Source: Ignavibacteriales bacterium
GTDB taxonomy: Bacteria > Bacteroidota > Ignavibacteria > UBA10030 > UBA6906
Direction: 5' to 3'
Length of the DNA stretch: 64,000 nt
Assembly (NCBI GenBank): GCA_037441705.1
Contig: JBBIRR010000001.1
Coordinates: 141,919 to 205,918, forward strand
A program made the position numbers and the translations under genes. The notes below the pieces were generated by a model that did no database searches, was not told the DNA's origin, and worked only from the letters and a program-made list of their open reading frames with translations. This document shows, piece after piece, positions 40,336 to 58,277 of this stretch (position 1 is the first letter of the stretch; each line of letters begins with the position of its first letter).

Positions 40336-41514
40336 TTACGGGCGTGGATTTCGTGGCCTAAATTCAGCGACGCGCTTGCGAGAAAAGCCGAAGGAATTCT
40401 TGATGATGGCCACGATTCGCTGTGCCGCTTTCCCATCGCCGTAGGGGTTGACAGCGTTTGCCATCCTGCGGTACTCACGCTGATCGTTCAGCAGTACAGT
40501 TGCTGCGCGGAAAATTCGCTCTTCGTTCAGCCCTACCAGACGTGCCGTACCGAATTGAATGGCCTCAGGACGCTCTGTCACCTCTCTCAGCACCAGCACC
40601 GGCTTTCCCAGCGCCGGCGCCTCTTCCTGTATCCCGCCTGAATCGGTGATGATCAGATGAGCCTTCGCCATGAGATGGATGAATTCCAGATAGCCCAACG
40701 GCTCCAGAAGGCAGACGTTGGAGAGGCCGCCGAGAATCGGAACAACAACCTCGCGCACGACCGGATTGAGATGAACCGGAAAGACGAAGAGGTCCTCCGG
40801 ATGACGCGACGCGAGCTTTTTCACTGCACGGCATGCGCCGCGCATCGGTTCCCCCCAATTCTCACGCCGGTGCATGGTCAAGAGAACAATCCGACGCGGC
40901 AATTGCATGATACGTGCAACGGTCCGTGCATGCGGCTTGAAGGGCCGTTGAAGCGCAATCCGTAGCGCGTCGATGACAGTATTGCCGGTGACAAAAATCC
41001 GCTCGGGTGGATAATGCTCGGCGAGCAGTGCGTCCTTTGCCGCTTGCGTCGGGGCGAAGTGCAGGTCGGTCACCGAACTTGTAAGCCTGCGGTTGATTTC
41101 TTCCGGAAACGGATGCGCCTTGTCGTTCGTTCGTAAGCCGGCCTCAACATGTCCAACGGGAATGCGGCGATAGAAGGCCGCCAGGCTTCCCACGAACGTC
41201 GTGGTCGTATCCCCCTGGACGAGAACCATGTCCGGCTGTTCCTTTTCCAGAACGGCATCCAGGGCCGACATCGTTCTGCTGGTGAGCGTCGCAAGAGATT
41301 GCCGCGGCTGCATCAGGTTCAAATCGTGTTCGGGCCTGATGGCAAATACGTCCAACACCTGATCAAGCATGTGGCGGTGCTGCGCGGTCGCAATCGTTAC
41401 CACACGAAACAACCGCGCTTGGTTCCTGAGGGCGAGAATGACGGGAGCTAATTTGATGGTATCCGGGCGCGTGCCGAAAATGACTGCAATGCGTTTGCGC
41501 TGTTTCCGTTTCAT
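40336..41514 (-). CDS. wecB: UDP-N-acetylglucosamine 2-epimerase (non-hydrolysing)
   Basis: IAVIFGTRPDTIKLAPV...HVEAGLRTNDKAHPFPEEINRRL...GNTVIDAL. Start at ATG 41514; the upstream extension translates a tandem DNA repeat (HHFNHHFN) and is rejected. Confidence 0.85.
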   Translation of the reverse strand: MKRKQRKRIAVIFGTRPDTIKLAPVILALRNQARLFRVVTIATAQHRHMLDQVLDVFAIRPEHDLNLMQPRQSLATLTSRTMSALDAVLEKEQPDMVLVQGDTTTTFVGSLAAFYRRIPVGHVEAGLRTNDKAHPFPEEINRRLTSSVTDLHFAPTQAAKDALLAEHYPPERIFVTGNTVIDALRIALQRPFKPHARTVARIMQLPRRIVLLTMHRRENWGEPMRGACRAVKKLASRHPEDLFVFPVHLNPVVREVVVPILGGLSNVCLLEPLGYLEFIHLMAKAHLIITDSGGIQEEAPALGKPVLVLREVTERPEAIQFGTARLVGLNEERIFRAATVLLNDQREYRRMANAVNPYGDGKAAQRIVAIIKNSFGFSRKRVAEFRPRNPRP

Positions 41515-41593
41515 GAGGTTCCGAGAGTATCCAGGCGCGGACACCAAGAAAGTACGTAATTCGGCAACGTCTTCCAACGCTCTGTGTGCTCTC

Positions 41594-41629
41594 TGGTTGA
41601 AATGATGGTTGAAATGATGGGTCAATTTC
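41594..41629. promoter_or_regulatory. Tandem 12-nt direct repeats in divergent intergenic region (candidate regulator binding sites)
   Basis: TGGTTGAAATGA occurs twice perfectly (41594-41605, 41606-41617) plus a degenerate third copy TGGGTCAATTTC. Located between the divergently transcribed wecB polysaccharide operon and the PAS histidine kinase. Confidence 0.4.
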
Positions 41630-41689
41630 TCTACATTGGCTCGGCGCTCTCCCCTGCCTCGTATTTAATTCGTCGTCCAGGTACCGACC

Positions 41690-43777
41690 ATGCGTCACAG
41701 GACAACCAAGCCTCCCCTCAAAATTGCACTGACATACGCAATCGTGGCCAGCCTCTACATCATGATCTCCGACAAGCTCGCCGGCACACTCGCCTCCACG
41801 ACCGAAGCGCTCACCGGGATCTCCCAAATCAAAGGACTGATGTTTGTCGCCCTCACCAGCCTGATGCTCTACCTGATGGTCCGGCGACTTACCAACGCCC
41901 AGCACCGCGTTCAAGAGGAATTGGTGAAGAGCAACGAACGCCTCGCGCTTATCACCTCAACGACGCCGGTCTTTCTTTTTGAGATTGATCGAACAGGAAC
42001 CATCCTTCACGCAACGAAGCCGTTCCAAGGAATACCGACGACGGATATCCTCAGCACGAACTTTTTCTCGTTCCTCCCCGAGCATCGGCGCGGAGCGCTC
42101 GCCGCGGTTATCGAAGCGACGTGCGCCACAGCGACAGCGCAGTCGTTCGAGTACACGACACGGACAGACGGACAGGAGCCGAGAACCTTTTCTCTGACGA
42201 TTGCCCCACTTCATCACAGCAACAACTCGCCTCACCTGCTGGTGACCGTCCACGACATCACCGACCAGAAACAGAAAGAGGATGCACTCCGACAATCGCA
42301 TCAACGCTTCGAGTTAGTTTCCCGCGCCTCCAACGACACCATCTGGGATTGGGATATCGTCTCGGGCAAGCTCTGGGTCAGCGACGCGTTCTTTCAAAAA
42401 TACGGCTATCCCCGAACCGCATCGCTGACGCTCAGTGATTGGGATTCACACATCCATCCGGAGGATCGCGAGCGCGTGGTGAAAAGCCGGCTCACCGCGG
42501 TGCAGCAGAGAGCAACTTCGTGGGAGGAAGAATTCCGCTTCGTGCATGCGAACGGATCAACCAGTTACGTTGTGGATCGCGGGTTTCTCGTGTTCGACGA
42601 TCAGGGCACGCCGGTGCGGATGATCTGCTCCATGGTGGATGTGACAACGTTGAAGCTCGCAGAGCTGGACCAGCGGTACTTAGCGGAAGAGCGGCAAAAG
42701 CTGCTGCATCAATTGCGCCTGCAGTTCGAGCGCATGCCGATCGGGTACGTCCTGGCCGACAGAAACTTCCGCATCGTCGAGTGGAATCCTTCCTGTGAGA
42801 AAATCTTCGGCTACACACGCGCGGAGGTGATCGGGCGGTCACCGTTCGATGTTGTGATCCCCTCCGTGCTCAAGCCCTTCATTCATGAGTTCATCGAACG
42901 GCTCAAGACGGGAAAAGAGACGCTGACCGCCATCAACGAAAATCTCACGAAAGACGGACGTACGATCCTGTGCGAATGGTTCGACACGCCGCTGTTTGAC
43001 GAGTACGGTAACTACACCGGCATGATCGCGATGGTGCAGGATATTACCGAGCGTCGGCATGCAGAGGAGGAGCTGAAGAAATCGAACATTCAGTTACGCA
43101 ACCTTTCGGCCTACTTGCAGACGGTTCGCGAGCAGGAACGTAAACACATCGCGCGCGAGATACACGATGAACTGGGCCAGGAACTGACGGCGCTGAAGAT
43201 GCAGGCAGCACTGATGCAGAAAGCGATCGCCAAGCTGGATGCAGCCGCGCCGAAGTCCGAACTTCTGGACCTCACGCACTCGCTCACCGTCATGGCCGAC
43301 ACGGCGATCAAGACCGTTCGCCGCATCGCGACAGAGCTGCGCCCCGATGTGCTGGACAAAGTGGGGCTGATCGACGCGCTGAAATGGCAGGCGCAGGAGT
43401 TCGAGAAGCGAACCGGCGTCCAGTGCATCTTTCGCTCGCGCGTGGACGAGTGGGACTTCCCCGACGACGTGGCAACGGCGCTCTTTCGGATTTTTCAGGA
43501 GGCACTCACCAACGTCTCGCGCCACGCTCGCGCAACGCGCGTTGCCGCCGAGCTTTCGCTGCGCGAGGATTGGGTGGACTTCCGCGTGGAAGATAACGGC
43601 CGAGGCATCAGCAAAGAACAGATCGAGAACACGTCGTCGCTCGGACTGATCGGCCTCGTCGAGCGCGCAAAACTCCTGGGCGGAACCGCCACGATTGTCG
43701 GCGTGCCTGGCGCGGGCACCACCATCAACGTGCATATTCCTCTCCCATCATCGAACGCGGAGAACGGACAGTCATGA
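41690..43777 (+). CDS. Membrane PAS-domain sensor histidine kinase (HisKA_3 / NarX-type)
   Basis: N-terminal TM region and three PAS-like modules. H-box HIAREIHDELGQELTALKMQ (HisKA_3 type). HATPase_c G-boxes (DNGRGI; GLIGLVERAKLLGG). Confidence 0.8.
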   Translation: MRHRTTKPPLKIALTYAIVASLYIMISDKLAGTLASTTEALTGISQIKGLMFVALTSLMLYLMVRRLTNAQHRVQEELVKSNERLALITSTTPVFLFEIDRTGTILHATKPFQGIPTTDILSTNFFSFLPEHRRGALAAVIEATCATATAQSFEYTTRTDGQEPRTFSLTIAPLHHSNNSPHLLVTVHDITDQKQKEDALRQSHQRFELVSRASNDTIWDWDIVSGKLWVSDAFFQKYGYPRTASLTLSDWDSHIHPEDRERVVKSRLTAVQQRATSWEEEFRFVHANGSTSYVVDRGFLVFDDQGTPVRMICSMVDVTTLKLAELDQRYLAEERQKLLHQLRLQFERMPIGYVLADRNFRIVEWNPSCEKIFGYTRAEVIGRSPFDVVIPSVLKPFIHEFIERLKTGKETLTAINENLTKDGRTILCEWFDTPLFDEYGNYTGMIAMVQDITERRHAEEELKKSNIQLRNLSAYLQTVREQERKHIAREIHDELGQELTALKMQAALMQKAIAKLDAAAPKSELLDLTHSLTVMADTAIKTVRRIATELRPDVLDKVGLIDALKWQAQEFEKRTGVQCIFRSRVDEWDFPDDVATALFRIFQEALTNVSRHARATRVAAELSLREDWVDFRVEDNGRGISKEQIENTSSLGLIGLVERAKLLGGTATIVGVPGAGTTINVHIPLPSSNAENGQS

Positions 43778-44406
43778 TCAAAATCCTCATCGCCGACGAC
43801 CATCCGATGGTTCGGGAGGGGCTGAAGAAGACGCTGAGCGAGGAACCGGATATCCACCTGCTGGGCGAGGCACGCAACGCACAGGAAACGCGCGCGCTGG
43901 TTGCCGAACATGACGCCGATGTGCTGGTGCTGGATATCTCGATGCCCGGCACAAGCGGCCTTTCGCTCCTGCAGGACGTCCTGCGCATGAAGAACGACCT
44001 GCGTGTGCTGATCCTGAGCATGCACCCCGAGGAACGCTTTGCCATCCGCGCACTCAAGGAAGGCGCCTCCGGTTATCTCACGAAAGAATCCGCGCCGGAG
44101 GAACTTGCGCGGGCAATCCGCAAAATTGCCGCCGGCCGACGCTACATCAGTCCCACACTTGCCGAGAAGCTCGTCGAAGAGCTTCAGTCGGATAGCACCG
44201 CTCTTCCTCATGAACTCCTCTCCGAGCGCGAGTACGAAATCTTCCTCATGATTGCCGGCGGCAAAACCGTAAGCGCTATCGCGGAGGAACTCTCGTTGAG
44301 CGTTGCGACCGTGAGCACACATCGCCGACGCATCCTCGAGAAAATGAACCTTTCGAACAACGCAGAAATCGTGCAATACGCTTACGCCAACAAGCTGATG
44401 CAGTAA
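43774..44406 (+). CDS. NarL/LuxR-family response regulator
   Basis: REC (ILIADDHPMVREG...VLVLDISMPG) plus LuxR HTH (LSEREYEIFLMIAGGKTVSAIAEELSLSVATVSTHRRRILEKM). ATGA overlap with the kinase. Confidence 0.85.
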   Translation: MIKILIADDHPMVREGLKKTLSEEPDIHLLGEARNAQETRALVAEHDADVLVLDISMPGTSGLSLLQDVLRMKNDLRVLILSMHPEERFAIRALKEGASGYLTKESAPEELARAIRKIAAGRRYISPTLAEKLVEELQSDSTALPHELLSEREYEIFLMIAGGKTVSAIAEELSLSVATVSTHRRRILEKMNLSNNAEIVQYAYANKLMQ

Positions 44407-44862
44407 GACCCGCCGCAACACGTCACCCCTGTTGGTTCCTTCTGCTGCAACGAGTTATCAGCGAAAGTATGACAGTACTTTCATACCCCCGCGAATTTTG
44501 CTTCCGTGTGTTCCATCGTATCTTTCTGTTGCCATCATCCGCGTCCGGGAGACCGCCGCGGCCCCCCGATGATGCGCAACAAAACAGTCAGGGAGAGAAA
44601 AATCTTTGCAACACAACAAGCAGCACAACACACAGGGACGAGACGGGGCCGCGCGCGCGGTTCGTATGAAGAGAATAGGTAAACTCTGTCCTCCGTTCGA
44701 TGCCTCGTACACAATCCTGAGCCGCACGGAAGCATTGTGCAGGAACGGAGCGGCCCTCTGGTTCCTCGCGCAGAGAGCAAGCAGCTCTACACAACGTCCT
44801 TCACGCAGCTTGCTCATTCCGCCCTTCCCGCCAGAAACACCATGCACGCGTAAGGAGGGGCA

Positions 44863-46065
44863 GTGAAAGACGCACGCATTCTGATTGTGGAAAACGAAGC
44901 ACCTCATGCCATGGACCTGAAGTACCGCGTCGAAACGCTCGGTTACCATGTGCTGGGGATTGTGGACACCGGAGAGAAAGCCGTTGATTTTGTCAAACGC
45001 TATCGCCCCGATTTGATTCTCATGGATGTCGGGCTGAATAGCGCAATGGATGGGGTTGCGACCGCGGCGGAAATCTGGAAGAAGACCAGGACGCCGTTCG
45101 TGTACATCACCGCGTATTCGGAAGAATCCATCGCGACCCGAACGGATGCCGTCGAGCCTTACGGTCTTGTCGGCAAGCCGTTTCATGATCGGGAGCTGCA
45201 GACGGCCATCGAAGTGGCGCTCTACAAGGCCGCGGTCGAAGCGTCGGTGCGCCGACGCGAACGGGAGCTTGAGACGATTCTCAACAGCATGCGCGACGGC
45301 GCGATCATCGTTGATCGGCACTCGCGTATTCGCTACATGAATCCCATTGCAGAACTCCTGACGGGTTGGAAAGCGAGCGAAGCAAACGGGCGCGAGCTTA
45401 GCAGCGTGCTGCGTCCGGCAGGGACGGACACGAAACAGGAGTTGTCCATCTGTCTCGGCATCGTCCTTCGTGAAGGCGGCGGCTTGACCGTCTCCAACAT
45501 CGAGTTGCTGACAAAGGATGATGCGCCCATCGTTGTGGATGCGGCGATCGCCGTGGTGCAGAATGCAACGGGCGAACTCGAAGGAGCGGCAGTGCTCCTC
45601 CAGGACGCTTCACCGCGCCTGCGTGCCGAGCGGGAGTTGGAGATGCAGCGCGCGTTCTTCCGCCAATTGTTCGAGAAGTCACCCCTGGCCATTGCCATTC
45701 TCGATCGCAACGATCGCTTCGTCGACATCAACCCGGCGTTCACCGAACTGTTTCAGTACACGCCGTCGGATGTCCGGGGGAAATGTATTGCTGATCTGCT
45801 TGTCCCGCCGGAATCCGCGAGCGAGTGGATGAACTACTCCCGTATGGTTCATGACAAAGAACGAGTGACCGCCACAGGATTACGTCGGCGGAAAGACGGA
45901 GGCATCGTTCCAGTTTCCATACATGCGATCCCCATTATGCTTTCGGACGACTCGATCGGCGTGTATGCAATTTACGGGAATGCCTCAGGGCAGGACCTCG
46001 ACGCGGCCTCGCCCTCTCGCGTTCTTACGCAGACATCACCAGAAACCATGAACGAAAGCGTATGA
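44863..46065 (+). CDS. Response-regulator receiver + two PAS domains (no recognised output domain)
   Basis: GTG start 5 nt after AAGGAGG. REC (ILIVENEAPHAMDL...LILMDVGL). PAS segments include QRAFFRQLFEKSPLAIAILDRNDRFVDINPAFTELFQY. ATGA overlap with the following kinase. Confidence 0.75.
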   Translation: MKDARILIVENEAPHAMDLKYRVETLGYHVLGIVDTGEKAVDFVKRYRPDLILMDVGLNSAMDGVATAAEIWKKTRTPFVYITAYSEESIATRTDAVEPYGLVGKPFHDRELQTAIEVALYKAAVEASVRRRERELETILNSMRDGAIIVDRHSRIRYMNPIAELLTGWKASEANGRELSSVLRPAGTDTKQELSICLGIVLREGGGLTVSNIELLTKDDAPIVVDAAIAVVQNATGELEGAAVLLQDASPRLRAERELEMQRAFFRQLFEKSPLAIAILDRNDRFVDINPAFTELFQYTPSDVRGKCIADLLVPPESASEWMNYSRMVHDKERVTATGLRRRKDGGIVPVSIHAIPIMLSDDSIGVYAIYGNASGQDLDAASPSRVLTQTSPETMNESV

Positions 46066-48950
46066 CGACATCCGCGAGTATTGATCTTCAGGGCAACATC
46101 AGCTTCGATTCTTCGCACCGGTCTGTGTATGCACCGGACATCGGTGTGGAAGAACGCTATCGCATCATCACGGAATTACTGACCGACATCATCTGCGAGA
46201 CCGACCCGAACGGTATCGCGACGTACGTGAGTCCATCGTGTCAAAAGGTTCTCGGCTACTCGCCCGATCAGTTGGTAGGCCGCTCGATCTTCGACCTGAT
46301 TCATCCCGATGATGTTGCCGAAGCACTCATCGTGTTCCACACGGCGATCAGCGATCGAAGCGAGGGCCGGGCCGAGGTTCGGTATCGCACCGCCGATGGT
46401 CGGTACATCTGGATGGAAGCAGTCGGACGAGCCATCTGTGAGTGGGACGGCACTGTCCGCGGCGCGATCATTATATGCCGGGACATCACCAGACGAGTTG
46501 AACAGCAGCGTGAACTGCGCGTCCAGAACGCGCTCCGTCAGGCTGCGCTTAACAGCACCGAGAACGGATTGTTTGCAATCGATGGCGAGTATCGGTACAC
46601 CCTGTTCAATCGCCATCACGCGGAACGCATGAAGCGCTTGTTCGGCATCGAGATCCAGCCCGGCAAGAGCATTGTCGAAGCCTTCAACACTCATCCGCAG
46701 CGGGATGAGATCAAGGCGTTCCTCGACCGCCTGCTGCAGGGTGAGCAAGCAGAGCCGCATCTGTGGTCCTTCGACACGGCTGAAGGGGGAGAGTACTACT
46801 GTGAAGCCTCCGGCAATCCCATCCGCAACGGACGCGGGGGCGTTGTGGGCGCTGTTGTCGTAACCAGAGACGTTACCCATCAGCATAAAGCGGAGGTACG
46901 CCGCCAGGAGCAACTGCTCTTTCTGAACACGCTGCTTGACGGCATTCCCGCTCCTGTTTTCTACAAGGACTGTCAGGGAAGGTTCCTGGGAATGAACAGA
47001 AGCTTCGAGCAGTTCTTTGCCATCGCGAAAGAGAGTCTCATCGGCAAGACGGTGTACGATCTTCTGCACGACGAACTCGCCCACGTAATCAGCCAGCATA
47101 ACCGGCAGGTTCTCTCGACCGAACAACCGCTTGTCTATCCGACAACGGTTTACAACGCAGCCGGCCAACTGCGTCAAGTGCTTGTTCATCTGGCTCCCTT
47201 CAAGGATCGGTCAGGGGCGATTGCCGGTGTGGTGGGGGTGGTTCTGGACGTAACGGAGTTGCGGGAGACGCAACAGCAGCTCCGCGGATCACTGGAAGAG
47301 AAAGAGGTGTTGGTGCGTGAGCTGAAGCTGCAGCAGGCATTCTTCAAACAACTGTTCCAGGCATCCCCCGAGGCGGTTGCCATCCTTGATGCTGACGGCG
47401 TGATCATAGATGTCAACGCGGCGTTCGAGCAGCTGTTCCAGTTCACAGCCGATGAAGCTCGGGGGAAAGTCTTCCGGGAGCTTATCGTGCCCGACGAACA
47501 ACGGGCCGACGCAGCAGCACAGTGGAATCCCCAAGAAGCTACCGATCTTCTCCGAACGGAAACCATCCGCATGCGTAAGGACGGTAGTCGCTTCCCGGTC
47601 GCCATCAGTGCGTCATCAATCATGCTGGACCAAAGTCGGTTGGGGGTGTGTGCTGTGTATCAGGACCTCACCCAAAGGAAGGAAGCAGAGGCACAACTTC
47701 GGCAGCTTTCGCGTGCCGTCGAGCAAAGCCCGGCTTCGATCATCATCACCGACACGACCGGAGCCATTGAATACGTCAACCCAAGATTCTGTGCACAAAC
47801 CGGCTACGCACTCGAGGAGGTACTCGGCAAGAATCCGCGCATCCTCAAATCCGGGCTGACGCCGCCGGAGGTGTATCGAGACCTGTGGCAAACGATCACG
47901 TCGGGCAGAGAGTGGATTGGAGAGCTTCACAACAAGACAAAAACCGGGGAGCTCTTCTGGGAACTCGCACATATCTCACCCATCATGGATGAGAACGGTA
48001 CCATCACCCACTACCTTGCCGTGAAGGAAGACATCACCGAGCGGAAGGGCATCGACTCGCTGCGTTCTCATCTGGAGGAACAGTTGCGCGCACGGAACGC
48101 CGAGCTGGAGCAGTCGATCGCGCAGATAAAAAAAATGCAGTCGGGCCTCATCCAGTCGGAAAAGATGGCGTCGCTGGGCTTGCTGACCGCCGGCATCGCG
48201 CACGAAATCAACAACCCGCTGGCCTACATTTCCAGCAACCTGAATCGGTTTGCCGAGTACTTCAATGACTCCGTTGCGCTGCTCGAGCGATGGAAGAAGT
48301 TCGCCGACGATGCTCGCCTCCAGGAAACACACGGTGCGGCGATCGCCGAACTGCAAGCTGAAGAAGAGCAGGTTGATCTTCCCTTCATCACAACCGATTT
48401 CACAAACCTGATGCAGCATGCCCGCGAGGGAATCGATCGCATCCGCTCCATCGTGGATCAACTACGCGGCTTCTCGCACGTGAGCAGCGAGGTGACGGAT
48501 GACGTCTCGGTGGAGCGCGCCCTGGACGACACGGTGATCCTTGCCTGGAACGAGATCAAGTACAAGGCCACGATGGTTCGGGAATACGGCAACATCCCGC
48601 CGGTACGCTGCAGCGCGGGCGAGCTGAAACAGGTGTTCGTCAACCTGCTGGTGAATGCGGCCCACGCGATTGAGAAGAACGGGACCATCACGCTGCGAAC
48701 GGCCACACGCGACGGACAGGCCGTGATCGAAATCGAAGACACCGGATGCGGCATTCCGCCGGAACATCTCAAGAAAATTTTCGATCCCTTCTTCACCACA
48801 AAAGCCGTCGGGAAAGGGACGGGCCTTGGCCTGTGGATTTCCGCAACCATCATCAACAAATATGGCGGAACGATCAACGTCGAGAGTCGCGTCGGTGTCG
48901 GATCGAAGTTCATCATCACCCTCCCCCTCGCTGCGGAGGCAAAAGGCTGA
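46062..48950 (+). CDS. Cytoplasmic multi-PAS sensor histidine kinase (HisKA + HATPase_c)
   Basis: At least five PAS/PAC modules. H-box SEKMASLGLLTAGIAHEINNPLAYISSNL. N, G1 and G2 boxes (VNAAHAI; DTGCGIP; GKGTGLGL). No REC domain. Confidence 0.8.
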   Translation: MTTSASIDLQGNISFDSSHRSVYAPDIGVEERYRIITELLTDIICETDPNGIATYVSPSCQKVLGYSPDQLVGRSIFDLIHPDDVAEALIVFHTAISDRSEGRAEVRYRTADGRYIWMEAVGRAICEWDGTVRGAIIICRDITRRVEQQRELRVQNALRQAALNSTENGLFAIDGEYRYTLFNRHHAERMKRLFGIEIQPGKSIVEAFNTHPQRDEIKAFLDRLLQGEQAEPHLWSFDTAEGGEYYCEASGNPIRNGRGGVVGAVVVTRDVTHQHKAEVRRQEQLLFLNTLLDGIPAPVFYKDCQGRFLGMNRSFEQFFAIAKESLIGKTVYDLLHDELAHVISQHNRQVLSTEQPLVYPTTVYNAAGQLRQVLVHLAPFKDRSGAIAGVVGVVLDVTELRETQQQLRGSLEEKEVLVRELKLQQAFFKQLFQASPEAVAILDADGVIIDVNAAFEQLFQFTADEARGKVFRELIVPDEQRADAAAQWNPQEATDLLRTETIRMRKDGSRFPVAISASSIMLDQSRLGVCAVYQDLTQRKEAEAQLRQLSRAVEQSPASIIITDTTGAIEYVNPRFCAQTGYALEEVLGKNPRILKSGLTPPEVYRDLWQTITSGREWIGELHNKTKTGELFWELAHISPIMDENGTITHYLAVKEDITERKGIDSLRSHLEEQLRARNAELEQSIAQIKKMQSGLIQSEKMASLGLLTAGIAHEINNPLAYISSNLNRFAEYFNDSVALLERWKKFADDARLQETHGAAIAELQAEEEQVDLPFITTDFTNLMQHAREGIDRIRSIVDQLRGFSHVSSEVTDDVSVERALDDTVILAWNEIKYKATMVREYGNIPPVRCSAGELKQVFVNLLVNAAHAIEKNGTITLRTATRDGQAVIEIEDTGCGIPPEHLKKIFDPFFTTKAVGKGTGLGLWISATIINKYGGTINVESRVGVGSKFIITLPLAAEAKG

Positions 48951-48959
48951 GCAGGTGAC

Positions 48960-50144
48960 ATGATTGCGGTCGATGAACATAAGAGGGCACAGGAGTCGGT
49001 TGCGTCGTCGTCCATCGTCGTGGTGGATGACGAGCCGGCGATTCTTGCGTCGCTCACAAGTTTGCTGCGCCGTCAACGCTTTGCCGTCCACGGATTTGAG
49101 GCAGGAACGGAAGCCCTCGAGTTTCTTCGCAACAATCCGGTGAGTCTGATCCTCAGCGACATGAAGATGCCGGAGATGAACGGGTGCGAGGTACTTCAGA
49201 AAGCTGTGCAGCTCAATCCGGACTCTGTACGCATCCTGATGAGCGGGCATGAGAGTAAAGAGGAGATTCTGGCTGCGATCAGCGACGGCATCGCCCAATT
49301 TTACATCATCAAACCGTGGGACGACGAGGCGCTGCGCGAGACCATGGGTGAAGCCATCCGCCTGCAGCAGGAGCTGAAGGCCCTGCGTCTCAAGGAAGTG
49401 CTGAAGTCGCTGAACGCGCTTCCGTCACCCTCGCGATTTCAGACGGGGCTCTGGCAGCTTCTGGCCAAGCCCGAGAAACCCATCCATGAACTCGCCGAAG
49501 AGATCGAGCGCAGTCCTGCGCTTGTAGCGAAGCTCCTGCGCGTCGCGAACTCGGTTTTCTTCGGGGCACGGCAGAAAGTCACAACCGTCCTCGATGCCCT
49601 TCGCCTCGTCGGGACGCAGTACGTCGTCTCCATGGCCATTTCGATCGAATCGCTGAACGCCGCGACGGGGGGGATGTCTGCCGACACTGCCGCTCGTGTC
49701 GAGAAGATTTGGGAGCGCAGCCTGCGGAAGACACATCTGGCAAAGCAGATTGCCTCGCGCTGGCAGAACTTCCAGCAGATGCATGCCCTGACGATCGCGT
49801 CGTTGCTGCAGGACATTGGCATAATCATCCTGATGTGTTATCGTCCCGAGGAGTATCGTCGGTATCAATCTCTGCTGGACACCAAGGGGGCGACGCCGTA
49901 CGCACTGCAGCGCGAGGTCTTCGGCATTACGCACGAGAAGTTGGGCGAAGCAGTGCTTGAGTACTGGAACTTTCCCAAAGAAATCAGCGCCGCTGTGGGA
50001 CGACACCATGGTCCGACGGAGAACGATACGATCGCTGTAATCCTTCAACTCACCAACATCCTCGACGACGAAAATGATGCGCGTCCCTACGACGAATCCA
50101 TCCTGCCGTTGGTCGGGGAGTGGAGCAATATCACCGGAACATAA
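48960..50144 (+). CDS. Response-regulator receiver + HDOD domain protein
   Basis: REC (VVVDDEPAILASL...LILSDMKMPEMNG). The C-terminal half matches my recollection of HDOD (PIHELAEEIERSPALVAKLLRVANSVFFGARQKVTTVLDALRLVGTQYV). Confidence 0.65.
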   Translation: MIAVDEHKRAQESVASSSIVVVDDEPAILASLTSLLRRQRFAVHGFEAGTEALEFLRNNPVSLILSDMKMPEMNGCEVLQKAVQLNPDSVRILMSGHESKEEILAAISDGIAQFYIIKPWDDEALRETMGEAIRLQQELKALRLKEVLKSLNALPSPSRFQTGLWQLLAKPEKPIHELAEEIERSPALVAKLLRVANSVFFGARQKVTTVLDALRLVGTQYVVSMAISIESLNAATGGMSADTAARVEKIWERSLRKTHLAKQIASRWQNFQQMHALTIASLLQDIGIIILMCYRPEEYRRYQSLLDTKGATPYALQREVFGITHEKLGEAVLEYWNFPKEISAAVGRHHGPTENDTIAVILQLTNILDDENDARPYDESILPLVGEWSNITGT

Positions 50145-50169
50145 TTCGTGAACTAATGATGATTGCCCT

Positions 50170-51387
50170 ATGAGTACACCATTTACGCCCAACCGAAAAG
50201 TCCTCTACGTTGACGACGAAGCGAATCTACTGACGTCGTTCATGTCGCTGATGCGGAAGGAACGTGTTCAGGTGAGCGTCCTCCAGCAATCGGAGCGGAT
50301 CGAGAGCGTCCTGCAGGAGCAGGGGCCTTTCGCCGTCGTCTTTTCCGATCAACGTATGCCGGCGATGGATGGTGTGGCGGTGCTCGAAACGGTGATGCGT
50401 CTGCATCCGGCAACCATCCGCGTGCTGATTACGGGTCATGCAGATTACGCAGACACGGTACGCGCCATCAACCTCGGCGGCATCAGTCACTTTATTTCCA
50501 AGCCGTGGAAAGACGATGCTTTGCGCAAGCTCGTCGGGGATTGCATTCAGCGATACAACATGGCCGAAGAGAACAAGTACCTCTTCGGTGAGCTGCAGCA
50601 AGCCAACGCCCATCTGAAGGAGTTGTTGGAGGGAACGGTGGTGGGTGCGGTGCACATCCTGAGCGATATTCTCACCTATCTCAATCCCGCTGCTGCCGCG
50701 CAGGTTGATCGCGTGCGCAAGTTAGGCCTGGCGTATTTGAACATGACGCCCGAGATTCACGGACAGGAACGATGGGAAATCGAGCGGGCGTTGGACCTGT
50801 TTAACCTCGGCATGGCATTGCTTCCGTCATGGCTGCAAGCGTCGCTCAACAAGGGGAATGCTGCGCTCCACGCCGATTCTCCTGTTCTGCAGAAGCAGCA
50901 TCTTGTCGCGGCCGGATTATTGAAAGACATCCCACGTCTGGAAGGCGTTGCGCGCATCATCGCCCTGCAGACAAAGAACTTCGACGGCTCCGGCGAACCC
51001 GCCAACGAAAACATCAGCGGCAAGGACATCCCGCTGGGCGCGCGGCTGCTGCACATCCTCATCGACCTCGACAAAGCACAGATCGAAAAAGGCCACGGCC
51101 GGCTTGCCCTCGAGCGCATGGCAACACAGCCTGCAAAGTACGACGTGGACATCATCGCTCGAATGGTGGGAGCTCAATCCCGACCAGCAGACCAAAGCGA
51201 ACGGCTGTTGCCGCTGCACGAGCTACGCCCCGGGATGATTCTGCTGGACGACATCATCACCGAAACGGGTCAACTGCTGCTGAAAGCCGACTTCGTGCTG
51301 ACCGACGTCGCCCTGAAGATTCTGCGTCAGTGGCACATGAACGATCCTATCGTTCACAAATTCCGCGTGAAGGCGGCTGCGTATTAG
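50170..51387 (+). CDS. Response-regulator receiver + degenerate HD-GYP-like domain
   Basis: REC (VLYVDDEANLLTS...VFSDQRMPAMDG). C-terminal NFDGSGEP...IPLGARLLHILIDLD aligns to the HHERxDGxGYP...IPxxARIxxVADxxD core of HD-GYP, but the HHE and GYP residues are replaced. Confidence 0.6.
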   Translation: MSTPFTPNRKVLYVDDEANLLTSFMSLMRKERVQVSVLQQSERIESVLQEQGPFAVVFSDQRMPAMDGVAVLETVMRLHPATIRVLITGHADYADTVRAINLGGISHFISKPWKDDALRKLVGDCIQRYNMAEENKYLFGELQQANAHLKELLEGTVVGAVHILSDILTYLNPAAAAQVDRVRKLGLAYLNMTPEIHGQERWEIERALDLFNLGMALLPSWLQASLNKGNAALHADSPVLQKQHLVAAGLLKDIPRLEGVARIIALQTKNFDGSGEPANENISGKDIPLGARLLHILIDLDKAQIEKGHGRLALERMATQPAKYDVDIIARMVGAQSRPADQSERLLPLHELRPGMILLDDIITETGQLLLKADFVLTDVALKILRQWHMNDPIVHKFRVKAAAY

Positions 51388-51491
51388 TATCGAGAAATCG
51401 CGGCAGCGTTTGCACTTCCCGAAAATTCTTCGTACTAATTGGCCAGACATCCATCCAGCAATTGTGTGTTTGAGTGAAGGAGGACTTGCCA

Positions 51492-51734
51492 ATGCGGATT
51501 GCGTGTCCGAAGTGCGCGTGGGAGCCGAGCGCAGGAGACCAGTGGCGATGTGCACCCGGCTGCGATTATGTCTGGAATACATTCGAGACGATGGGACGAT
51601 GCCCGCAGTGCGGCAAACAGTGGCGCGAAACCTGTTGCCTCGAGTGTAAGCGGTGGAGCCCACACCTCGACTGGTATCACGATCTGCCCGATGTGCTCGA
51701 TGAGGTGGAAGACGCCGTCAACGCTCCCGCCTGA
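51492..51734 (+). CDS. Small double zinc-ribbon protein
   Basis: Cys pairs CPKC/CAPGC and CPQC/CLEC. ATG is 8 nt after AAGGAGG; the GTG at 51474 lies inside the SD and is rejected. Confidence 0.5.
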   Translation: MRIACPKCAWEPSAGDQWRCAPGCDYVWNTFETMGRCPQCGKQWRETCCLECKRWSPHLDWYHDLPDVLDEVEDAVNAPA

Positions 51735-51736
51735 CG

Positions 51737-52309
51737 TTACTCCAGCTTCAGCTTTTTCAGCTTCGGTTTGATCACGAACTGGCAGTACGGCTGGAAGGCG
51801 TTGTTGTTGTAATAGTTGTGGTGATAATCTTCGGCAACGTAGAACTTTGTCAGCGGCGCAATCTCGGTGACGATCGGCCGGTCGAAATGTTTCTGCGCTT
51901 CCTTCAACGACTTCTGCGCCGCCGCTTTCTGTTGCTCGTTGTGGTAGAAGATCACCGAGCGGTACTGTGTTCCGACGTCATTTCCCTGCCGGTTACGCGT
52001 GGTGGGATCGTGTGCCTCCCAGAAAATCTCGAGCAGCCGCTCGTAGCTGACCTTCGATGGGTCGAACGTAATCTGCGCAACTTCGGCATGCCCGGTGGTG
52101 CCGGTGCAGACTTCCTGATAGGTCGGATTATCCTTTGTGCCTCCGGCATAGCCGGGCACAACGGATGTGACGCCCGTGATGCGCTGGAACACAGCCTCGA
52201 CACACCAGAAACATCCCGCGCCGAATGTTGCTTTTTCCTCGTGAACCATCTTGTCCCCTTTCTGTCCTACGCCCGGCATAAGCATGAGCAACGTCATGAA
52301 TGTCATCAT
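51737..52309 (-). CDS. msrA: Peptide methionine sulfoxide reductase A (probably exported)
   Basis: Active-site GCFWCVEAVF. Hydrophobic N-terminal leader. GAAGGAGGG RBS upstream. Confidence 0.85.
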   Translation of the reverse strand: MMTFMTLLMLMPGVGQKGDKMVHEEKATFGAGCFWCVEAVFQRITGVTSVVPGYAGGTKDNPTYQEVCTGTTGHAEVAQITFDPSKVSYERLLEIFWEAHDPTTRNRQGNDVGTQYRSVIFYHNEQQKAAAQKSLKEAQKHFDRPIVTEIAPLTKFYVAEDYHHNYYNNNAFQPYCQFVIKPKLKKLKLE

Positions 52310-52381
52310 CGCGGACCCTCCTTCCCTTAAACAAACACATTTGCCATCACAGAATGTTCACGCGCCGATCACGGAAGGAGT

Positions 52382-53143
52382 TCATCGCACTCTCCCGATG
52401 AACACATCCGGTTCCCTCCGTCCCGCCTCGAACAGCTTCACCAGCACAAGACCGACTAGGAAGCCGCCGATGTGCGCAGCATACGCAACCCCGCCGCCTT
52501 GCGAACCGAGCGAGCCAACGCCGCTCGCCAGCTGAAACACAAACCACAGCCCGATTGCCATGAGGGAAGGAACTTCTGTGAGCATGTTGAACATGATGAC
52601 GCGAACGCGTTTGCCGGGAAAGAGAATAAGATAGGCGCCGAGCACGCCCGAGATTGCTCCGGAGGCACCGAGGCTCGGAATGTACGGGTTACCTCCGAAG
52701 ATGAAGGTCGAAGACACGTGGGCGAGAGAAGCAAGTACCCCGGCGACAAGATAGAAGATAAGATATCGCAGATGGCCGAGCCGATCTTCGATGTTATCGC
52801 CAAAGATCCAGAGGTAGAGCATGTTACCGCCGAGATGCGCAAAGCCTCCGTGCATGAACATGGACGTCAGCAGCGTGAGATAAACGGAAATGGGGGTCGG
52901 CTGGAGGCCCGGAATGTCGAAGATGCGTCCCGTGCGCGGATCCCGTGCCATACGATCTTCCGTAACCACGTCCGCGCCCGTGGCAATCTCTTCGGGCACG
53001 GTGGAGAACGCCATCGTGAACCTGTCGTTGGAGCCTAACCCTTGCAGGAAGACGAACACGATAACATTCAATGCGATGAGCGCATAGTTGACCAGCGGTG
53101 TCGTTGTCCGATCCGTGTTGTCATCACCGAGGGGAAGTATCAT
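52382..53143 (-). CDS. Rhomboid-family intramembrane serine protease
   Basis: GASGAISGVLGAYL (catalytic Ser) and AHIGGFLVGL (catalytic His) within 6 TM helices. Confidence 0.8.
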   Translation of the reverse strand: MILPLGDDNTDRTTTPLVNYALIALNVIVFVFLQGLGSNDRFTMAFSTVPEEIATGADVVTEDRMARDPRTGRIFDIPGLQPTPISVYLTLLTSMFMHGGFAHLGGNMLYLWIFGDNIEDRLGHLRYLIFYLVAGVLASLAHVSSTFIFGGNPYIPSLGASGAISGVLGAYLILFPGKRVRVIMFNMLTEVPSLMAIGLWFVFQLASGVGSLGSQGGGVAYAAHIGGFLVGLVLVKLFEAGRREPDVFIGRVR

Positions 53144-53512: not shown

Positions 53513-54994
53513 TCAATCCATCCTCTCATAGTTATCGGCTGCGCCGTAGAGTTGATTGAGCGGCACCTGCCGAATGGTGCGGAGGTTCTGCGGATTGGAA
53601 ATGTAGCGGAGAATGATTTTGTAGCTGTCGTAGTCGAATCGCGGCGTCCGCCTGAACAATTCGGTCTGGCCGAACTCGTTGAACGTAAAGCTCGACAGCA
53701 GACACCAGTTGTCGATCACAAATGCCTGTCCTTCATTGGTTACCGGATTACGCTCCTCGATAATGATCCCCCCATTGAAGGGCCACGCTTTGATGCGGCG
53801 CGACGCAAACGCCTCCTCGACCCGCCGATTGTACGTGGCGGCTTCCTCCTCTCCCACACAGGCGCCGCTGCACTGATGAAGATGATAGGCAAAACAGTAG
53901 GAGTGTGTCCGTTCCAAACCCAACAGCTTGTGGCAGAGGCGGTATTCCTTTGCAGAGGCGGCAAGGTATTCTTTTGCTTGCTTGATGCTCTTGAAGATTC
54001 CCATGATGGGCGCTTCGAGGTCAATGGCAATTTCGTGCACCTTTTCTAACTCGATGCGGGCGTACCCGTTGGGAGAGAGGACGCGGCGCGCAAGCACAAT
54101 GTCGCGATGGCTGCGCGAGGCAACGTTGTACACGGGACGCAGTTCCTTGATCAATTGCGACTCCAGCAGCAGCGCGCCTAACTCGCCGCTCGTCTTTCGT
54201 GCCTCGATGCGTGCCACCTGCTGCGCCATCTCCATCTCGCGAGAGGAGCGATGATCGCCGGAGAAATGCGACATGACGCGGTCGCGAATGCAGACACTCT
54301 TGCCCACGTAGAGCAGTTCGTTCGCCTTGCCGTAAAAGAGATAAACACCCGGTGTCTCCGGCAACTCCTCGATCACTTCCTTATCCAGATGCGCCGGCAG
54401 GCTGGACGTTTTGAGGATGGCATTCACGGCGTTCGTGAACAGCTCTCGCGACGTCTCACGTTCGAGCGCGCACAACACCTCCAGCAGCGCGCGTGCATCC
54501 CCCAATGCACGATGACGATCCCGGCAGACAATCTGATGCCGCTGCAGCATGCTGTCGAGATCGTGATGCCGATAGGCGGGAAAGAGTTTCTTCGAGAGCT
54601 TGACCGTACAGAGGCAGCGCGCGGAAAACTCTCGCCCCAACCGCCTGAACTCATTCTTGATAAACCCATAATCAAACCGGGCGTTGTGTGCGACGAAAAG
54701 TGCGCCAGCCAGCATCGTGAACAGCTCGCGGGCAATGGAGTGAAACATCGGCGCGTGGTACACATCCTCGTTGGTGATGCCGGTGAGCTGCTCGATTTCA
54801 TGCGGGATGAACCGGTCGGGATTTACCAACGAGTGAAATTCCTTCACCACTCGTCCTCGCTCAAGACGAATCACGGCGACGTCAATGATGCGGCCGTACA
54901 TCGCATTGCCGCCGGTCGTCTCGATATCCACAACAGCGAGCGGCCGATCATCGAGAAAGCGGAGGCGGGGTTCGAGGGTTGAGGTCAGCGTCAT
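53513..54994 (-). CDS. DnaQ-like 3'-5' exonuclease (DEDDh) fused to GIY-YIG nuclease domain (Cho/UvrC-N-like)
   Basis: Exo motifs VVDIETTG (Exo I), FVAHNARFDYGF (Exo II) and HRALGDARAL (Exo III). Then GVYLFYGKANELLYVGKS...R (GIY-YIG). Start ATG 54994 overlaps the PfkB stop as ATGA. Confidence 0.75.
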   Translation of the reverse strand: MTLTSTLEPRLRFLDDRPLAVVDIETTGGNAMYGRIIDVAVIRLERGRVVKEFHSLVNPDRFIPHEIEQLTGITNEDVYHAPMFHSIARELFTMLAGALFVAHNARFDYGFIKNEFRRLGREFSARCLCTVKLSKKLFPAYRHHDLDSMLQRHQIVCRDRHRALGDARALLEVLCALERETSRELFTNAVNAILKTSSLPAHLDKEVIEELPETPGVYLFYGKANELLYVGKSVCIRDRVMSHFSGDHRSSREMEMAQQVARIEARKTSGELGALLLESQLIKELRPVYNVASRSHRDIVLARRVLSPNGYARIELEKVHEIAIDLEAPIMGIFKSIKQAKEYLAASAKEYRLCHKLLGLERTHSYCFAYHLHQCSGACVGEEEAATYNRRVEEAFASRRIKAWPFNGGIIIEERNPVTNEGQAFVIDNWCLLSSFTFNEFGQTELFRRTPRFDYDSYKIILRYISNPQNLRTIRQVPLNQLYGAADNYERMD

Positions 54995-56063: not shown

Positions 56064-56618
56064 ATGCAGACTCCGACCATCATCTTCACATACGATGACT
56101 ACCTGACTCTTCCCAACGACGGGAAGAGATATGAGATTATTGACGGAGATTTGCACATCACCCCCGCACCCATCCCCGAGCACCAGCTTGTCCTTGTTTA
56201 TTTGACAGAAATCTTGCTGGCCTACCTTCGCAGCCATAAATGGGGAAAGTTGTTCGTTGCACCTACCGATGTGGTGTTCTCCATGACGGAAGTGGCACAA
56301 CCTGACATCGCAGTCGTTGCAAGAGAGCGTGACCACATCATCACAAAAAGGAATATCATTGCAGCTCCCGATCTCATCGTCGAGATTCTTTCGGAGGCAA
56401 CGGAGAAAACCGACCGGACAACAAAGAAGGCGATGTACGAACGGCATGGCGTGAAAGAATACTGGATCGTTGATCCGTCCGATCGCTCCGTGGAGATCTT
56501 CGAACTCGTGGGCGGAGCGTACGCGCCGGGCACACGCTTTGCATCAACGGAAGAAGTACACTCCCCGCTTCTGTCCGGGCTTTCGTTCCGTGTGCAGACC
56601 ATTTTCGACTTCGAGTAG
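56064..56618 (+). CDS. Uma2-family (DUF820) putative restriction-endonuclease-like protein
   Basis: YEIIDGDLHITPAPIPEHQLVL...PDIAVV...APDLIVEILS...KKAMYERHGVKEYWIVDP fits the PD-(D/E)xK-like Uma2 pattern as I recall it. Confidence 0.6.
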   Translation: MQTPTIIFTYDDYLTLPNDGKRYEIIDGDLHITPAPIPEHQLVLVYLTEILLAYLRSHKWGKLFVAPTDVVFSMTEVAQPDIAVVARERDHIITKRNIIAAPDLIVEILSEATEKTDRTTKKAMYERHGVKEYWIVDPSDRSVEIFELVGGAYAPGTRFASTEEVHSPLLSGLSFRVQTIFDFE

Positions 56619-58205: not shown

Positions 58206-58277
58206 TCCATTACATCCCTGTGGTGGACGGAGGCTTCAAGTGAGAATCTATTGCGGACCGGAAATCCGGAGTTGCAA

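Follow-up and report, generated by a model that had tools for sequence, protein, structure and literature searches.

A six-gene signalling cluster of an Ignavibacteriales bacterium contains an apparently widespread cassette of a histidine kinase, a REC-HDOD regulator and a regulator with a dead HD-GYP domain

Here we describe six signalling genes, all on the forward strand, in a window of 64,000 nucleotides (the whole stretch of DNA that was analysed) from an Ignavibacteriales bacterium. A preliminary description of the region had proposed a six-gene signalling cluster at 41690-51387 and named HMM domain annotation as a check; the list of open reading frames and Pfam annotation confirm the cluster, with all six genes (g1 to g6) real at the coordinates in Table 1 and carrying the domains listed there. 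ATGA overlaps of four nucleotides join g1 to g2 and g3 to g4, gaps of 9 and 25 nt separate g4 from g5 and g5 from g6, and a spacer of 456 nt lies between g2 and g3. The overlaps, together with synteny, suggest that g3 to g6 (unit B) are co-transcribed.

Table 1. Genes, domains and sites of the signalling cluster, in window positions.
Feature	Coordinates	Strand	Description
g1	41690..43777	+	cytoplasmic PAS-HisKA_3-HATPase_c sensor kinase, 695 aa; ORF and Pfam
g2	43774..44406	+	NarL/GerE-type DNA-binding response regulator, 210 aa; ATGA overlap with g1
Palindrome GTATGAcagtacttTCATAC	44467..44486		g2-g3 spacer; candidate operator
g3	44863..46065	+	REC-PAS-PAS, 400 aa; GTG start; Pfam REC and two PAS
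g3 second PAS	45559..45975	+	aa 233-371; paralogue of g4 fourth PAS
g4	46062..48950	+	cytoplasmic histidine kinase with five PAS domains, 962 aa; enlarged DHp; HATPase_c
g4 fourth PAS	47304..47660	+	aa 405-533 as matched by BLAST; paralogue of g3 second PAS
g4 fifth PAS, DHp-proximal	47694..48056	+	aa 545-665; MmoS/NifL-like, LOV-related
g5	48960..50144	+	REC-HDOD response regulator, 394 aa; Pfam
g6	50170..51387	+	REC, long helical linker, non-catalytic HD-GYP-fold domain, small C-terminal domain; 405 aa; Pfam REC and HD_5
g6 HD-GYP-fold pseudoenzyme domain	50662..51174	+	aa ~165-335
g6 C-terminal beta-beta-beta-alpha-beta domain	51187..51384	+	aa ~340-405; family-conserved; no Pfam model

Unit A (g1 and g2) is a classical pair of a cytoplasmic kinase and a transcription factor, and the earlier reading of it as an ATGA-coupled PAS/HisKA_3 kinase and NarL-family regulator agrees with the Pfam matches and the overlap. 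The kinase matches PAS_9 (8e-32), HisKA_3 (3e-14) and HATPase_c (2e-13), with PAS repeats visible as two to three matched stretches per Pfam model; its H-box is HDELGQ, and in a simple hydropathy scan no segment reaches typical transmembrane hydrophobicity. The regulator combines Response_reg (2e-26) with GerE (4.5e-17), and its NCBIfam matches, to UvrY/GacA, NarL and others, all fall below their cutoffs. Orthologues of g1 stand upstream of the g4-g5-g6 genes in three of the loci compared, L018, L014 and L017, and those of g2 occupy the same position there with 92%, 70% and 50% identity, respectively. The palindrome in the spacer behind g2, 377 nt upstream of g3, is found once in the window (0.02 matches expected). 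Of 100 fetched loci, L018 (4306-4325) and L014 (5819-5841) alone have it as well, each time, as here, with the GerE regulator gene on one side and the following operon on the other; it is not present in L017, although that locus has g1 and g2. Through this conserved candidate operator, g2 may regulate transcription of the downstream operon.

The first gene of unit B, g3, is preceded by the Shine-Dalgarno sequence AAGGAGG at 44852-44858. The N-terminal receivers that are fused to the corresponding kinases of L017, L035 and L046 share 41%, 39% and 36% identity, respectively, with the receiver of g3, and the same split of g3 from the kinase, with a four-nucleotide overlap, is seen in the independent genome of L018. 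Since the receiver is thus orthologous to a kinase-fused one elsewhere, the more plausible view of g3 is that of an input module detached from g4, a split-off piece of the kinase. This alters the proposal of one kinase with three receiver partners carrying degenerate HD-family domains: the g3 receiver belongs with the kinase, and g3 has no HD-family domain at all. A PAS segment had also been described as duplicated between g3 and g4, and the duplication holds, with 39% identity over 139 aa (BLASTP, E 1e-25) between residues 233-371 of g3 and 405-533 of g4, against the 24-27% reached by other PAS pairs; the consensus quoted for it was slightly off, the g3 sequence being RAFFRQLFE...DINPAFTELFQYT. 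With the corresponding PAS of the L018 kinase, this second PAS of g3 shares 48% identity.

The identification of g4 as a multi-PAS HisKA kinase without a receiver is upheld by Pfam, which finds five PAS domains and HATPase_c (5e-27), with HisKA below threshold (23.8 bits against a cutoff of 26.9); the H-box is AHEINNPL, with His714. In a phmmer search of the PDB, the fifth PAS matches 3ewk ('Sensor protein', E 2.5e-36), the NifL PAS 2gj3 (9e-20) and LOV kinases (~1e-14); it scores 207 bits against the NCBIfam nifL model (cutoff 242), and the photoactive Cys of LOV domains is missing (GKNPRILKSG). We take 3ewk to be the redox-sensor PAS pair of MmoS. The same description stands in a reference title in PMC7994243. 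Judged by these similarities, the fifth PAS may bind flavin, and a DHp-adjacent PAS of the MmoS/NifL flavin type suggests redox sensing; only a few of the related kinases carry a PAS of this type.

The g5 protein matches HDOD (1.8e-43) and REC (1.3e-22). In an alignment with six orthologues, its HDOD domain has lost two His ligands (WERS, LLQDIG), and its closest solved relative is the HDOD domain of MmoQ (3ljx/3p3q, E 3.5e-19), where the same substitutions are present. The receivers of g5 and g6 are 35% identical, whereas their identity to those of g2 and g3 is 21-23%, and both share the alpha-1 signature L.S..SL.R[RK]; such paralogous receivers are consistent with one shared kinase.

In g6, the receiver residues D15, D16, D60, T88 and K111 do not vary among 80 homologues, and the AlphaFold2 model of the protein has a pLDDT of 90.6. 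The preliminary description had seen a non-catalytic HD-GYP-like domain, quoting the strings NFDGSGEP and IPLGARLLHILIDLD, both of which are found, and this view is confirmed. It was right that HHE is absent (Q267-T268-K269) and that GYP is replaced (G275-E276-P277), but it understated the loss: the first His (Gln178), the HD dyad (Phe211-Asn212) and the third His (Gln243) are gone too. No intact HD-GYP catalytic set was found in g6, all of the metal-ligand motifs checked being replaced. The replacement extends across the family, which numbers 1,470 clusters at E<=1e-10; at the HHE position, 138 of 160 aligned sequences have Q and 134 have K, so the catalytic loss is, by these alignments, ancient and family-wide and not a local decay. 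The best NCBIfam match of g6 is NosR, at 222 bits against a cutoff of 400, and the scores of g6 and of every relative tested lie between 206 and 276 bits. By sequence comparison, g6 is a sub-threshold relative of NosR/HnoD.

The suggestion that such a protein serves as a c-di-GMP adaptor is weakened because neither the RxY[K/R] guanine-binding motif of PmGH and DvhD nor the GYP tyrosine is conserved (PMC13090378), and because GGDEF, EAL and PilZ show no enrichment in the 145 genes examined on the flanks of about 30 loci and are absent from the top families there. None of the three was found among the scanned main open reading frames of the 64-kb window either. A metal-free cyclic-dinucleotide receptor like DvhD of Desulfovibrio vulgaris, which would couple c-di-GMP (or cGAMP or pGpG) to the phosphorelay, is nevertheless worth weighing: the same SQ replacement is common in the g6 family, conservation extends to the Lys and Gly of KPG and to the D-G-[ST]-G-x-P loop, and HDOD domains are frequently fused to EAL domains (PMC2952852). 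However, binding by DvhD needs R650, Y652 and R653 of its RxYR motif (PMC13090378), where we read K, H and G in the g6 alignment; this segment is variable and five residues shorter across the g6 family, and the GYP tyrosine, Glu in g6, also varies. DvhD, which unlike g6 retains KPG, GYP and RxYR for nucleotide binding, is moreover a membrane dCache-PAS protein and not a response regulator. Together with the flanking genes, these differences make a DvhD-like role of g6 rather unlikely.

Comparison of loci indicates that g4, g5 and g6 represent a widespread cassette of three genes that is passed on together in several phyla and consists of a HEIN[NT]P kinase with an enlarged DHp, a REC-HDOD protein and a REC-dead HD-GYP protein with a small C-terminal domain. 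In 51 of 59 homologous loci the gene immediately upstream of the g6 counterpart encodes REC-HDOD, and in 36 of 40 a kinase gene directly precedes REC-HDOD, with the HEIN[NT]P H-box in 33 of these 36 kinases; the loci include Pirellulaceae, Solidesulfovibrio, Ignavibacteriaceae and Bacteroidota. Across 44 loci, the kinases encoded upstream of REC-HDOD share 34-88% identity with the core of g4 (aa 691-962), and the identities of kinase core, g5 and g6 co-vary (r 0.95-0.96). The tightly packed second operon of the preliminary description behaves as one unit, with the order kinase, REC-HDOD, REC-dead-HD-GYP kept in most homologous loci across phyla. Two-component-rich genomes often place such genes side by side, and further REC and kinase genes are indeed common in the flanks, so the six genes might be an incidental pile-up of unrelated systems, coupled only within kinase-regulator pairs; but the cassette genes keep their order across phyla while overlapping or nearly abutting, their divergence is correlated, and g1 and g2 are co-conserved with them down to 50% identity. 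For g4 to g6 the synteny counts already contradict such a pile-up, which we regard as highly improbable.

The link to polysaccharides appears, from the same comparison, not to be conserved. The cluster had been placed beside an EPS operon and credited with control of matrix production. The adjacency is real, g1 being divergent from a 22-kb glycan locus whose first gene encodes a UDP-GlcNAc 2-epimerase, but that locus is of the ABC-transporter type (Wzm/Wzt, with Wzt_C), a type met more often with O-antigen or capsule-like polymers than with regulated EPS. The claim of control drew on this adjacency, which recurs in the nearest relative, L018, whose locus alone among those of the close relatives extends upstream of g1, and which is absent in L014, L015, L017, L019 and L020. 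Although HnoD- and NosR-type systems control biofilm in Proteobacteria (PMC6335343, PMC12570481), the flanks of about 30 loci show no enrichment of glycosyltransferase or export families, and the palindrome occurs nowhere within the glycan locus. That the six genes are a dedicated regulator of the adjacent polysaccharide locus is therefore very unlikely.

Our preferred explanation, to which we give as a whole a probability of about 0.6, is that the region holds two linked two-component units, A (g1 and g2) and B (the operon g3 to g6), and that the cassette is most likely a cytoplasmic, probably redox-sensing, branched phosphotransfer module acting by protein-protein contacts. In this lineage, the usual N-terminal receiver-PAS module of the kinase would be the separate, translationally coupled g3. 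The kinase g4 would read cytoplasmic signals through its five PAS domains, among them redox state through the DHp-adjacent one, and pass phosphate to g5 and g6, whose receivers are paralogous. The output domains of these two regulators, neither of which should be able to hydrolyse nucleotides, may be phosphorylation-controlled protein-binding modules, possibly binding each other, with a target that is probably not encoded nearby.

Protein-binding outputs are suggested by the precedents of the degenerate HD-GYP regulators HnoD and NosR and of the HDOD adaptor SadB. In HnoK/HnoS-HnoB/HnoC/HnoD of Shewanella oneidensis and NosP-NosK-NosR of Burkholderia, as we infer here, phosphotransfer is branched, with cytoplasmic kinases serving several single-receiver regulators; among the latter is a REC protein with a degenerate HD-GYP domain. 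HnoD is without phosphodiesterase activity and acts by partner binding (10.1101/2021.11.05.467447, PMC6335343), NosK shares the HEINN H-box of g4 (PMC12570481), and the Hno cluster includes a DNA-binding regulator (HnoC, compare g2). Unlike those systems, the present one has no H-NOX or NosP/FIST sensor, its PAS domains being built into the kinase, and its conserved partner is REC-HDOD instead of REC-EAL; g6 and its tested relatives also stay far below the NosR cutoff, and other residues have taken the place of the lost motifs (Q-x-K and SQ or FN in the g6 family, HG...GTP in NosR, SE/QLE in HnoD).

The MmoS/MmoQ system of Methylococcus capsulatus resembles the cassette in its pairing of a kinase with a REC-HDOD protein, in the fifth PAS and in the HDOD domain, but the cassette does not lie beside methane monooxygenase genes and adds the REC-dead-HD-GYP partner and the NarL-type pair. 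With RpfG of RpfC/RpfG and other RpfG-family c-di-GMP phosphodiesterases, g6 shares the combination of REC and HD-GYP fold; it lacks their catalytic metal-ligand motifs, as far as checked, GYP tyrosine and RxY[K/R], and has an extra C-terminal domain. The contacts of RpfG with GGDEF proteins presumably map to the GYP motif, in the G-x-P loop region, where conservation within the g6 family is highest. Such contacts are reported in reference titles in PMC4114195. HDOD outputs without demonstrable c-di-GMP hydrolysis (PMC4114195) are known from the REC-HDOD regulators GsmR of Xanthomonas and DVU0330 of D. vulgaris and from the HDOD adaptor SadB, and MmoQ and GsmR are precedents only for the existence of REC-HDOD regulators without known enzymatic activity. 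SadB of Pseudomonas is reported to work as a proteolysis adaptor (PMC12075610). Unlike GsmR, SadB and DVU0330, g5 is paired with a dead HD-GYP regulator, a pairing of which we found no published case in the literature. In size and architecture, DVU0330 (412 aa) corresponds to the Solidesulfovibrio REC-HDOD gene that is paired with a g6 homologue.

The kinase, REC-HDOD and REC-HD-GYP-like genes that close the six-gene signalling cluster of the window (g4, g5 and g6 of g1-g6) are the local copy of a widespread cassette, of which our literature search found no published description. One hundred loci around homologues of g6 (28-98% identity, from genomes and metagenomes) were scanned with profiles derived from the window sequences and their orthologues. 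In 51 of the 59 loci having at least 1,250 nt of upstream sequence, the gene directly upstream on the same strand encodes a REC-HDOD protein of about 400 aa; in 1 more it lies one gene further up. A histidine kinase ends no more than 400 nt before the REC-HDOD start in 36 of the 40 pairs with enough sequence; the tight packing that the preliminary description saw is thus that of a real unit, whose gene order is kept. The H-box HEIN[NT]P stands about 250-270 residues from the C-terminus in 33 of the 36 cassette kinases, the g4 core is 34-88% identical to all 44 kinases, and the identities that kinase core, g5 and g6 show with the corresponding proteins rise and fall together (r 0.95-0.96). Named carriers include genomes of Pirellulaceae, Solidesulfovibrio, Ignavibacteriaceae and Bacteroidota. 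The sensor regions of the kinases vary, with an N-terminal receiver in one third of them. At one distant locus (L034, 11309-16177), three more stand-alone HDOD genes and a hybrid kinase follow immediately downstream of the cassette, a local HDOD expansion.

Features of the window, with positions, strands and domain content
Feature	Position	Strand	Description
g1	41690-43777	+	695 aa; PAS repeats (2-3 matched stretches per model), HisKA_3, HATPase_c (Pfam)
g2	43774-44406	+	210 aa; REC, GerE (Pfam)
palindrome	44467-44486		GTATGA-N8-TCATAC
g3	44863-46065	+	400 aa, GTG start; REC, 2 PAS (Pfam)
g4	46062-48950	+	962 aa; 5 PAS, sub-threshold HisKA, HATPase_c (Pfam)
g5	48960-50144	+	394 aa; REC, HDOD (Pfam)
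g6	50170-51387	+	405 aa; REC, HD_5 (71 bits) (Pfam)
glycan locus	19284-41625	-	22 kb, upstream of g1
glycan locus genes		-	UDP-GlcNAc 2-epimerase; GT2 and GT4 transferases; DegT aminotransferase; PMT_2 protein; polysaccharide deacetylase
glycan locus export genes		-	Wzm (ABC2_membrane), Wzt (ABC_tran plus Wzt_C)
two GH8 genes	19284-21341 and 37516-40191	-	one with BNR/Ycf48-like repeats, the other with three fn3 and a type-9-secretion C-terminal sorting domain
second REC-GerE regulator	18228-18881	-	far end of glycan locus
tRNA	19134-19207	-	far end of glycan locus
downstream of cassette			80-aa Cys-rich ORF, msrA, rhomboid protease, exonuclease-GIY-YIG protein, housekeeping genes
80-aa Cys-rich ORF	51492-51734	+	four CxxC-like pairs, zinc-ribbon-like
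Lon, Hsp20 genes	11783-15728	-	Lon protease, then two tandem Hsp20 genes
exonuclease-GIY-YIG protein	53513-55096	-	DnaQ-like exonuclease fused to GIY-YIG nuclease
Uma2-family endonuclease	56064-56618	+	
23S rRNA intervening sequence protein	58179-58718	+	

All six reading frames lie where they had first been placed, and ORF calls and Pfam bear out their domains. ATGA overlaps join g1 to g2 and g3 to g4, gaps of 9 and 25 nt separate g4 from g5 and g5 from g6, and a 456-nt spacer lies between g2 and g3, the latter preceded by AAGGAGG. A simple hydropathy scan found no transmembrane-like segment in any of the six proteins.

The protein encoded by g6 has an N-terminal receiver with a phospho-acceptor Asp followed by an HD-GYP fold, as in the RpfG family, and its AlphaFold2 models are confident (pLDDT 90.6 for the whole protein, 91.7 for aa 150-405). 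To assign its residues, the family profile was aligned residue by residue to the HD-GYP proteins V-cGAP3 and DvhD and read together with the family columns. Every ligand motif is replaced: the first His by Gln178, the HD dyad by Phe211-Asn212, the third His by Gln243 and HHE by Gln267-Thr268-Lys269. The Lys that follows the dyad has become Met215, KPG is reduced to K-G, GYP reads Gly275-Glu276-Pro277, and QTKNFDGSGEP stands in place of the HHExx[D/N]GxGYP signature. Retention of the third catalytic His was considered and rejected, since Gln243 occupies the conserved position and His244 falls one residue off. The first description of g6 as a non-catalytic HD-GYP-like protein stands, both for g6 and across its family. 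An exhaustive search with aa 140-405 recovered 3,522 clusters at E<=1e-3, of which 1,470 also pass E<=1e-10, nearly all of them proteins of 380-410 aa in which the match starts right after the receiver; tblastn of the output module against a plasmid collection gave no match. In an alignment of 160 sequences, made up of search representatives and distant homologues, the HHE position holds Q in 138 sequences and K in 134, SQ prevails at the HD position and the residue at the place of the GYP tyrosine varies, a pattern by which the loss of catalytic residues is judged to be ancient and family-wide. In the family the receiver phosphorylation residues D15, D16, D60, T88 and K111 are all invariant. 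Also conserved are a 57-residue helical linker, a loop D-G-[ST]-G-x-P...G.DIPLGARIL and, at the C-terminus, a beta-beta-beta-alpha-beta domain (about 65 aa, containing a GM motif) for which Pfam has no model.

The characterised systems to which g6 can be linked have degenerate regulators as well. Against the NCBIfam model for NosR (NF053512), g6 scores 222.5 bits and ten diverse relatives score 206-276 bits, all below the cutoff of 400. NosR, a receiver with a degenerate HD-GYP domain, receives its phosphate from NosK, a kinase with the H-box HEINN (PMC12570481). HnoD, a degenerate REC-HD-GYP regulator, acts as an inhibitor of HnoB, a REC-EAL enzyme; its network comprises two kinases and three regulators, with the transcription factor HnoC among its members (10.1101/2021.11.05.467447, PMC6335343). 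Neither NosP (FIST), nor an H-NOX sensor, nor an HnoB-like REC-EAL protein was found in the scanned ORFs of the window or among the top flank families of about 30 loci. The preliminary description had offered g6 as an adaptor for c-di-GMP or another signal, and the c-di-GMP part of that proposal is weakened. In PmGH one of the guanines of c-di-GMP makes contact with an RxY[K/R] segment (10.1101/2021.11.05.467447). In the receptor DvhD, which binds c-di-GMP without metal at a site of RxYR, GYP Tyr and KPG, the RxYR residues R650, Y652 and R653 are essential for binding (PMC13090378). This segment is not conserved in the g6 family, where it is 5 residues shorter; read from the alignment, g6 has K, H and G at the three DvhD positions, Glu276 replaces the GYP Tyr, and of KPG only Lys and Gly are kept. 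With the RpfG family g6 shares the receiver and the HD-GYP fold but lacks the metal ligands, the signature and RxY[K/R]. The flanks scanned around the cassette are not enriched in GGDEF, EAL or PilZ domains.

The HDOD domain of g5 matches PF08668 above the gathering score (148.8 bits, cutoff 22.9) over the whole profile, positions 1-196 of 196. Its nearest solved structure is MmoQ (E 3.5e-19), with two His residues lost in both, and the HD dyad is intact in the Solidesulfovibrio orthologue. HDOD regulators tested so far have shown no c-di-GMP activity (PMC4114195), and the HDOD protein SadB is described as a proteolysis adaptor (PMC12075610). The receivers of g5 and g6 are 35% identical to each other and 21-23% identical to those of g2 and g3, and they share an alpha-1 signature; they are paralogous, which fits a single cognate kinase. 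The branched phosphorelay first proposed, in which one kinase serves three receivers, holds as far as phosphotransfer from one kinase may be inferred, while the third receiver, that of g3, does not belong to an output regulator.

Hundreds of lineages from at least four phyla thus carry neighbouring genes for a REC-HDOD protein and a REC-dead-HD-GYP protein, both placed behind one conserved kinase core. To our knowledge HDOD is among the commonest bacterial signalling output domains without an established mechanism, and we know of degenerate HD-GYP regulators from few proteobacterial cases only (HnoD, NosR). The adjacent coding leads to a testable hypothesis, that one kinase has proteins of the g5 and g6 types as co-substrates and that the two are probably partners, and the cassette supplies a defined set of proteins for expression. 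We give roughly three chances in ten to the fuller reading, that the trio is an unrecognised, phylum-spanning three-component module in which two HD-superfamily pseudoenzyme regulators would form a phosphorylation-controlled heteromeric switch. If that were true, the enigmatic HDOD domain would gain a defined partner and an assay.

In the kinase itself, HATPase_c is clear (95 bits), while HisKA reaches 23.8 bits against a cutoff of 26.9 and is covered in helix 1 only, with the H-box AHEINNPL at His714. The distance from this His to the C-terminus, 248 aa, points to a probable insertion in the DHp domain. The DHp-proximal PAS domain (PAS5) best matches PDB entry 3ewk (E 2.5e-36), followed by PAS1 of NifL (2gj3, 9e-20) and then LOV kinases, with GKNPRILKSG replacing the LOV Cys motif; the NCBIfam NifL model gives 207 bits (cutoff 242). 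We take 3ewk to be the FAD-binding redox sensor of MmoS. The title of a reference in PMC7994243 agrees with 3ewk being the MmoS redox sensor. That a LOV/flavin PAS is common to all cassette kinases was rejected, since the motif is found only in the window and four other loci (L014, L018, L031, L050).

That g3 and g4 are one gene broken by a frameshift was also considered and rejected: in L018, a locus from the independent genome of a close relative, both ORFs are again separate and overlap by the same 4 nt. The g3 receiver resembles the receivers fused to the kinase at three other loci (identity 41% for L017, 39% for L035 and 36% for L046), which tells against g3 as a separate receiver partner. 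This resemblance and the shared split together argue that g3 is, judging from its sequence, a detached input module of the kinase and that there is no third output regulator. The PAS copy common to g3 and g4 is borne out (g3 aa 233-371 and g4 aa 405-533, 39% identity, E 1e-25; other PAS pairs 24-27%). The second PAS of g3 stands closer to the fourth PAS of the kinase in L018 (48% identity, g3 aa 257-382 with aa 419-542) than to that of its own neighbour g4 (39%), which hints at gene conversion or at unequal rates after the duplication.

Within the Bacteroidota-like clade, g1 and g2 are retained together just ahead of the cassette, with g2 orthologues 92% (L018), 70% (L014) and 50% (L017) identical. 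By Pfam matches above cutoffs, the REC-GerE regulator and the adjoining HisKA_3/HATPase_c kinase are a NarL/FixJ-type pair; no NCBIfam equivalog cutoff was reached. The palindrome lies 61 nt after g2 and is unique in the window (0.02 expected). Across the roughly 1.1 Mb of loci retrieved, the only other copies are those of L018 (4306-4325) and L014 (5819-5841, with an 11-nt spacer), both in the corresponding stretch that separates the gene of the GerE regulator from the operon after it; L017 has none. It is a plausible candidate operator for the adjacent GerE-type regulator. A promoter and terminator scan of 41000-52500 gave counts equal to those of shuffles and was uninformative; the host may use other promoter types. 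Rfam searches of the whole window, and permissively of the g2-g3 spacer, found no riboswitch or other RNA, the only match being the tRNA.

The glycan locus beside g1, at first called an EPS operon whose matrix product the cluster might control, is an ABC-transporter-dependent cluster and belongs to neither the Wzx/Wzy nor the synthase type of EPS operon. It adjoins the cluster in L018 too, the only close relative whose locus extends upstream of g1. When 145 flanking ORFs from about 30 diverse loci were compared with Pfam, enrichment was confined to two-component domains (REC 18, HATPase_c 13, HisKA 8, plus PAS; GerE 3 times), and GGDEF, EAL, PilZ, glycosyltransferase and export families were absent from the top 25; the main ORFs scanned in the window likewise hold no GGDEF, EAL or PilZ domain. 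Therefore no c-di-GMP enzyme partner or polysaccharide target is encoded with the cassette, and control of matrix production, for which nothing speaks beyond local adjacency, is unsupported. For the window, it can no longer be assumed that the polysaccharide genes next to the cluster are under its control. With a second REC-GerE regulator and the tRNA at its far end, the locus has a NarL-type regulator on either side and a tRNA at its limit, where an island may end. The type-9 sorting domain and the closest genome match, which is 91% identical and carries the label 'uncultured Chitinophagales', point to the Bacteroidota group. In the region 41511-41690, the epimerase ORF as called, with a TTG start at 41625, leaves 64 nt to g1, and its Pfam match starts at aa 70; the L018 orthologue has 391 aa and a 229-nt spacer. 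The true start therefore probably lies about 38 codons further in.

The Cys-rich ORF about 100 nt after g6 has a GAAGGAGG ribosome-binding site and no Pfam match, and a gene of 80 aa occupies the same place in L018. The L018 orthologue of the exonuclease-GIY-YIG protein carries additional UvrC_M and Cho_C annotations, and the protein is therefore a Cho-like repair protein. An aldehyde dehydrogenase gene lies between those for the Uma2-family endonuclease and the '23S rRNA intervening sequence protein'. Lon and the Hsp20 genes form a heat-shock cluster, with Tex, RF3, SppA and HU genes further upstream.
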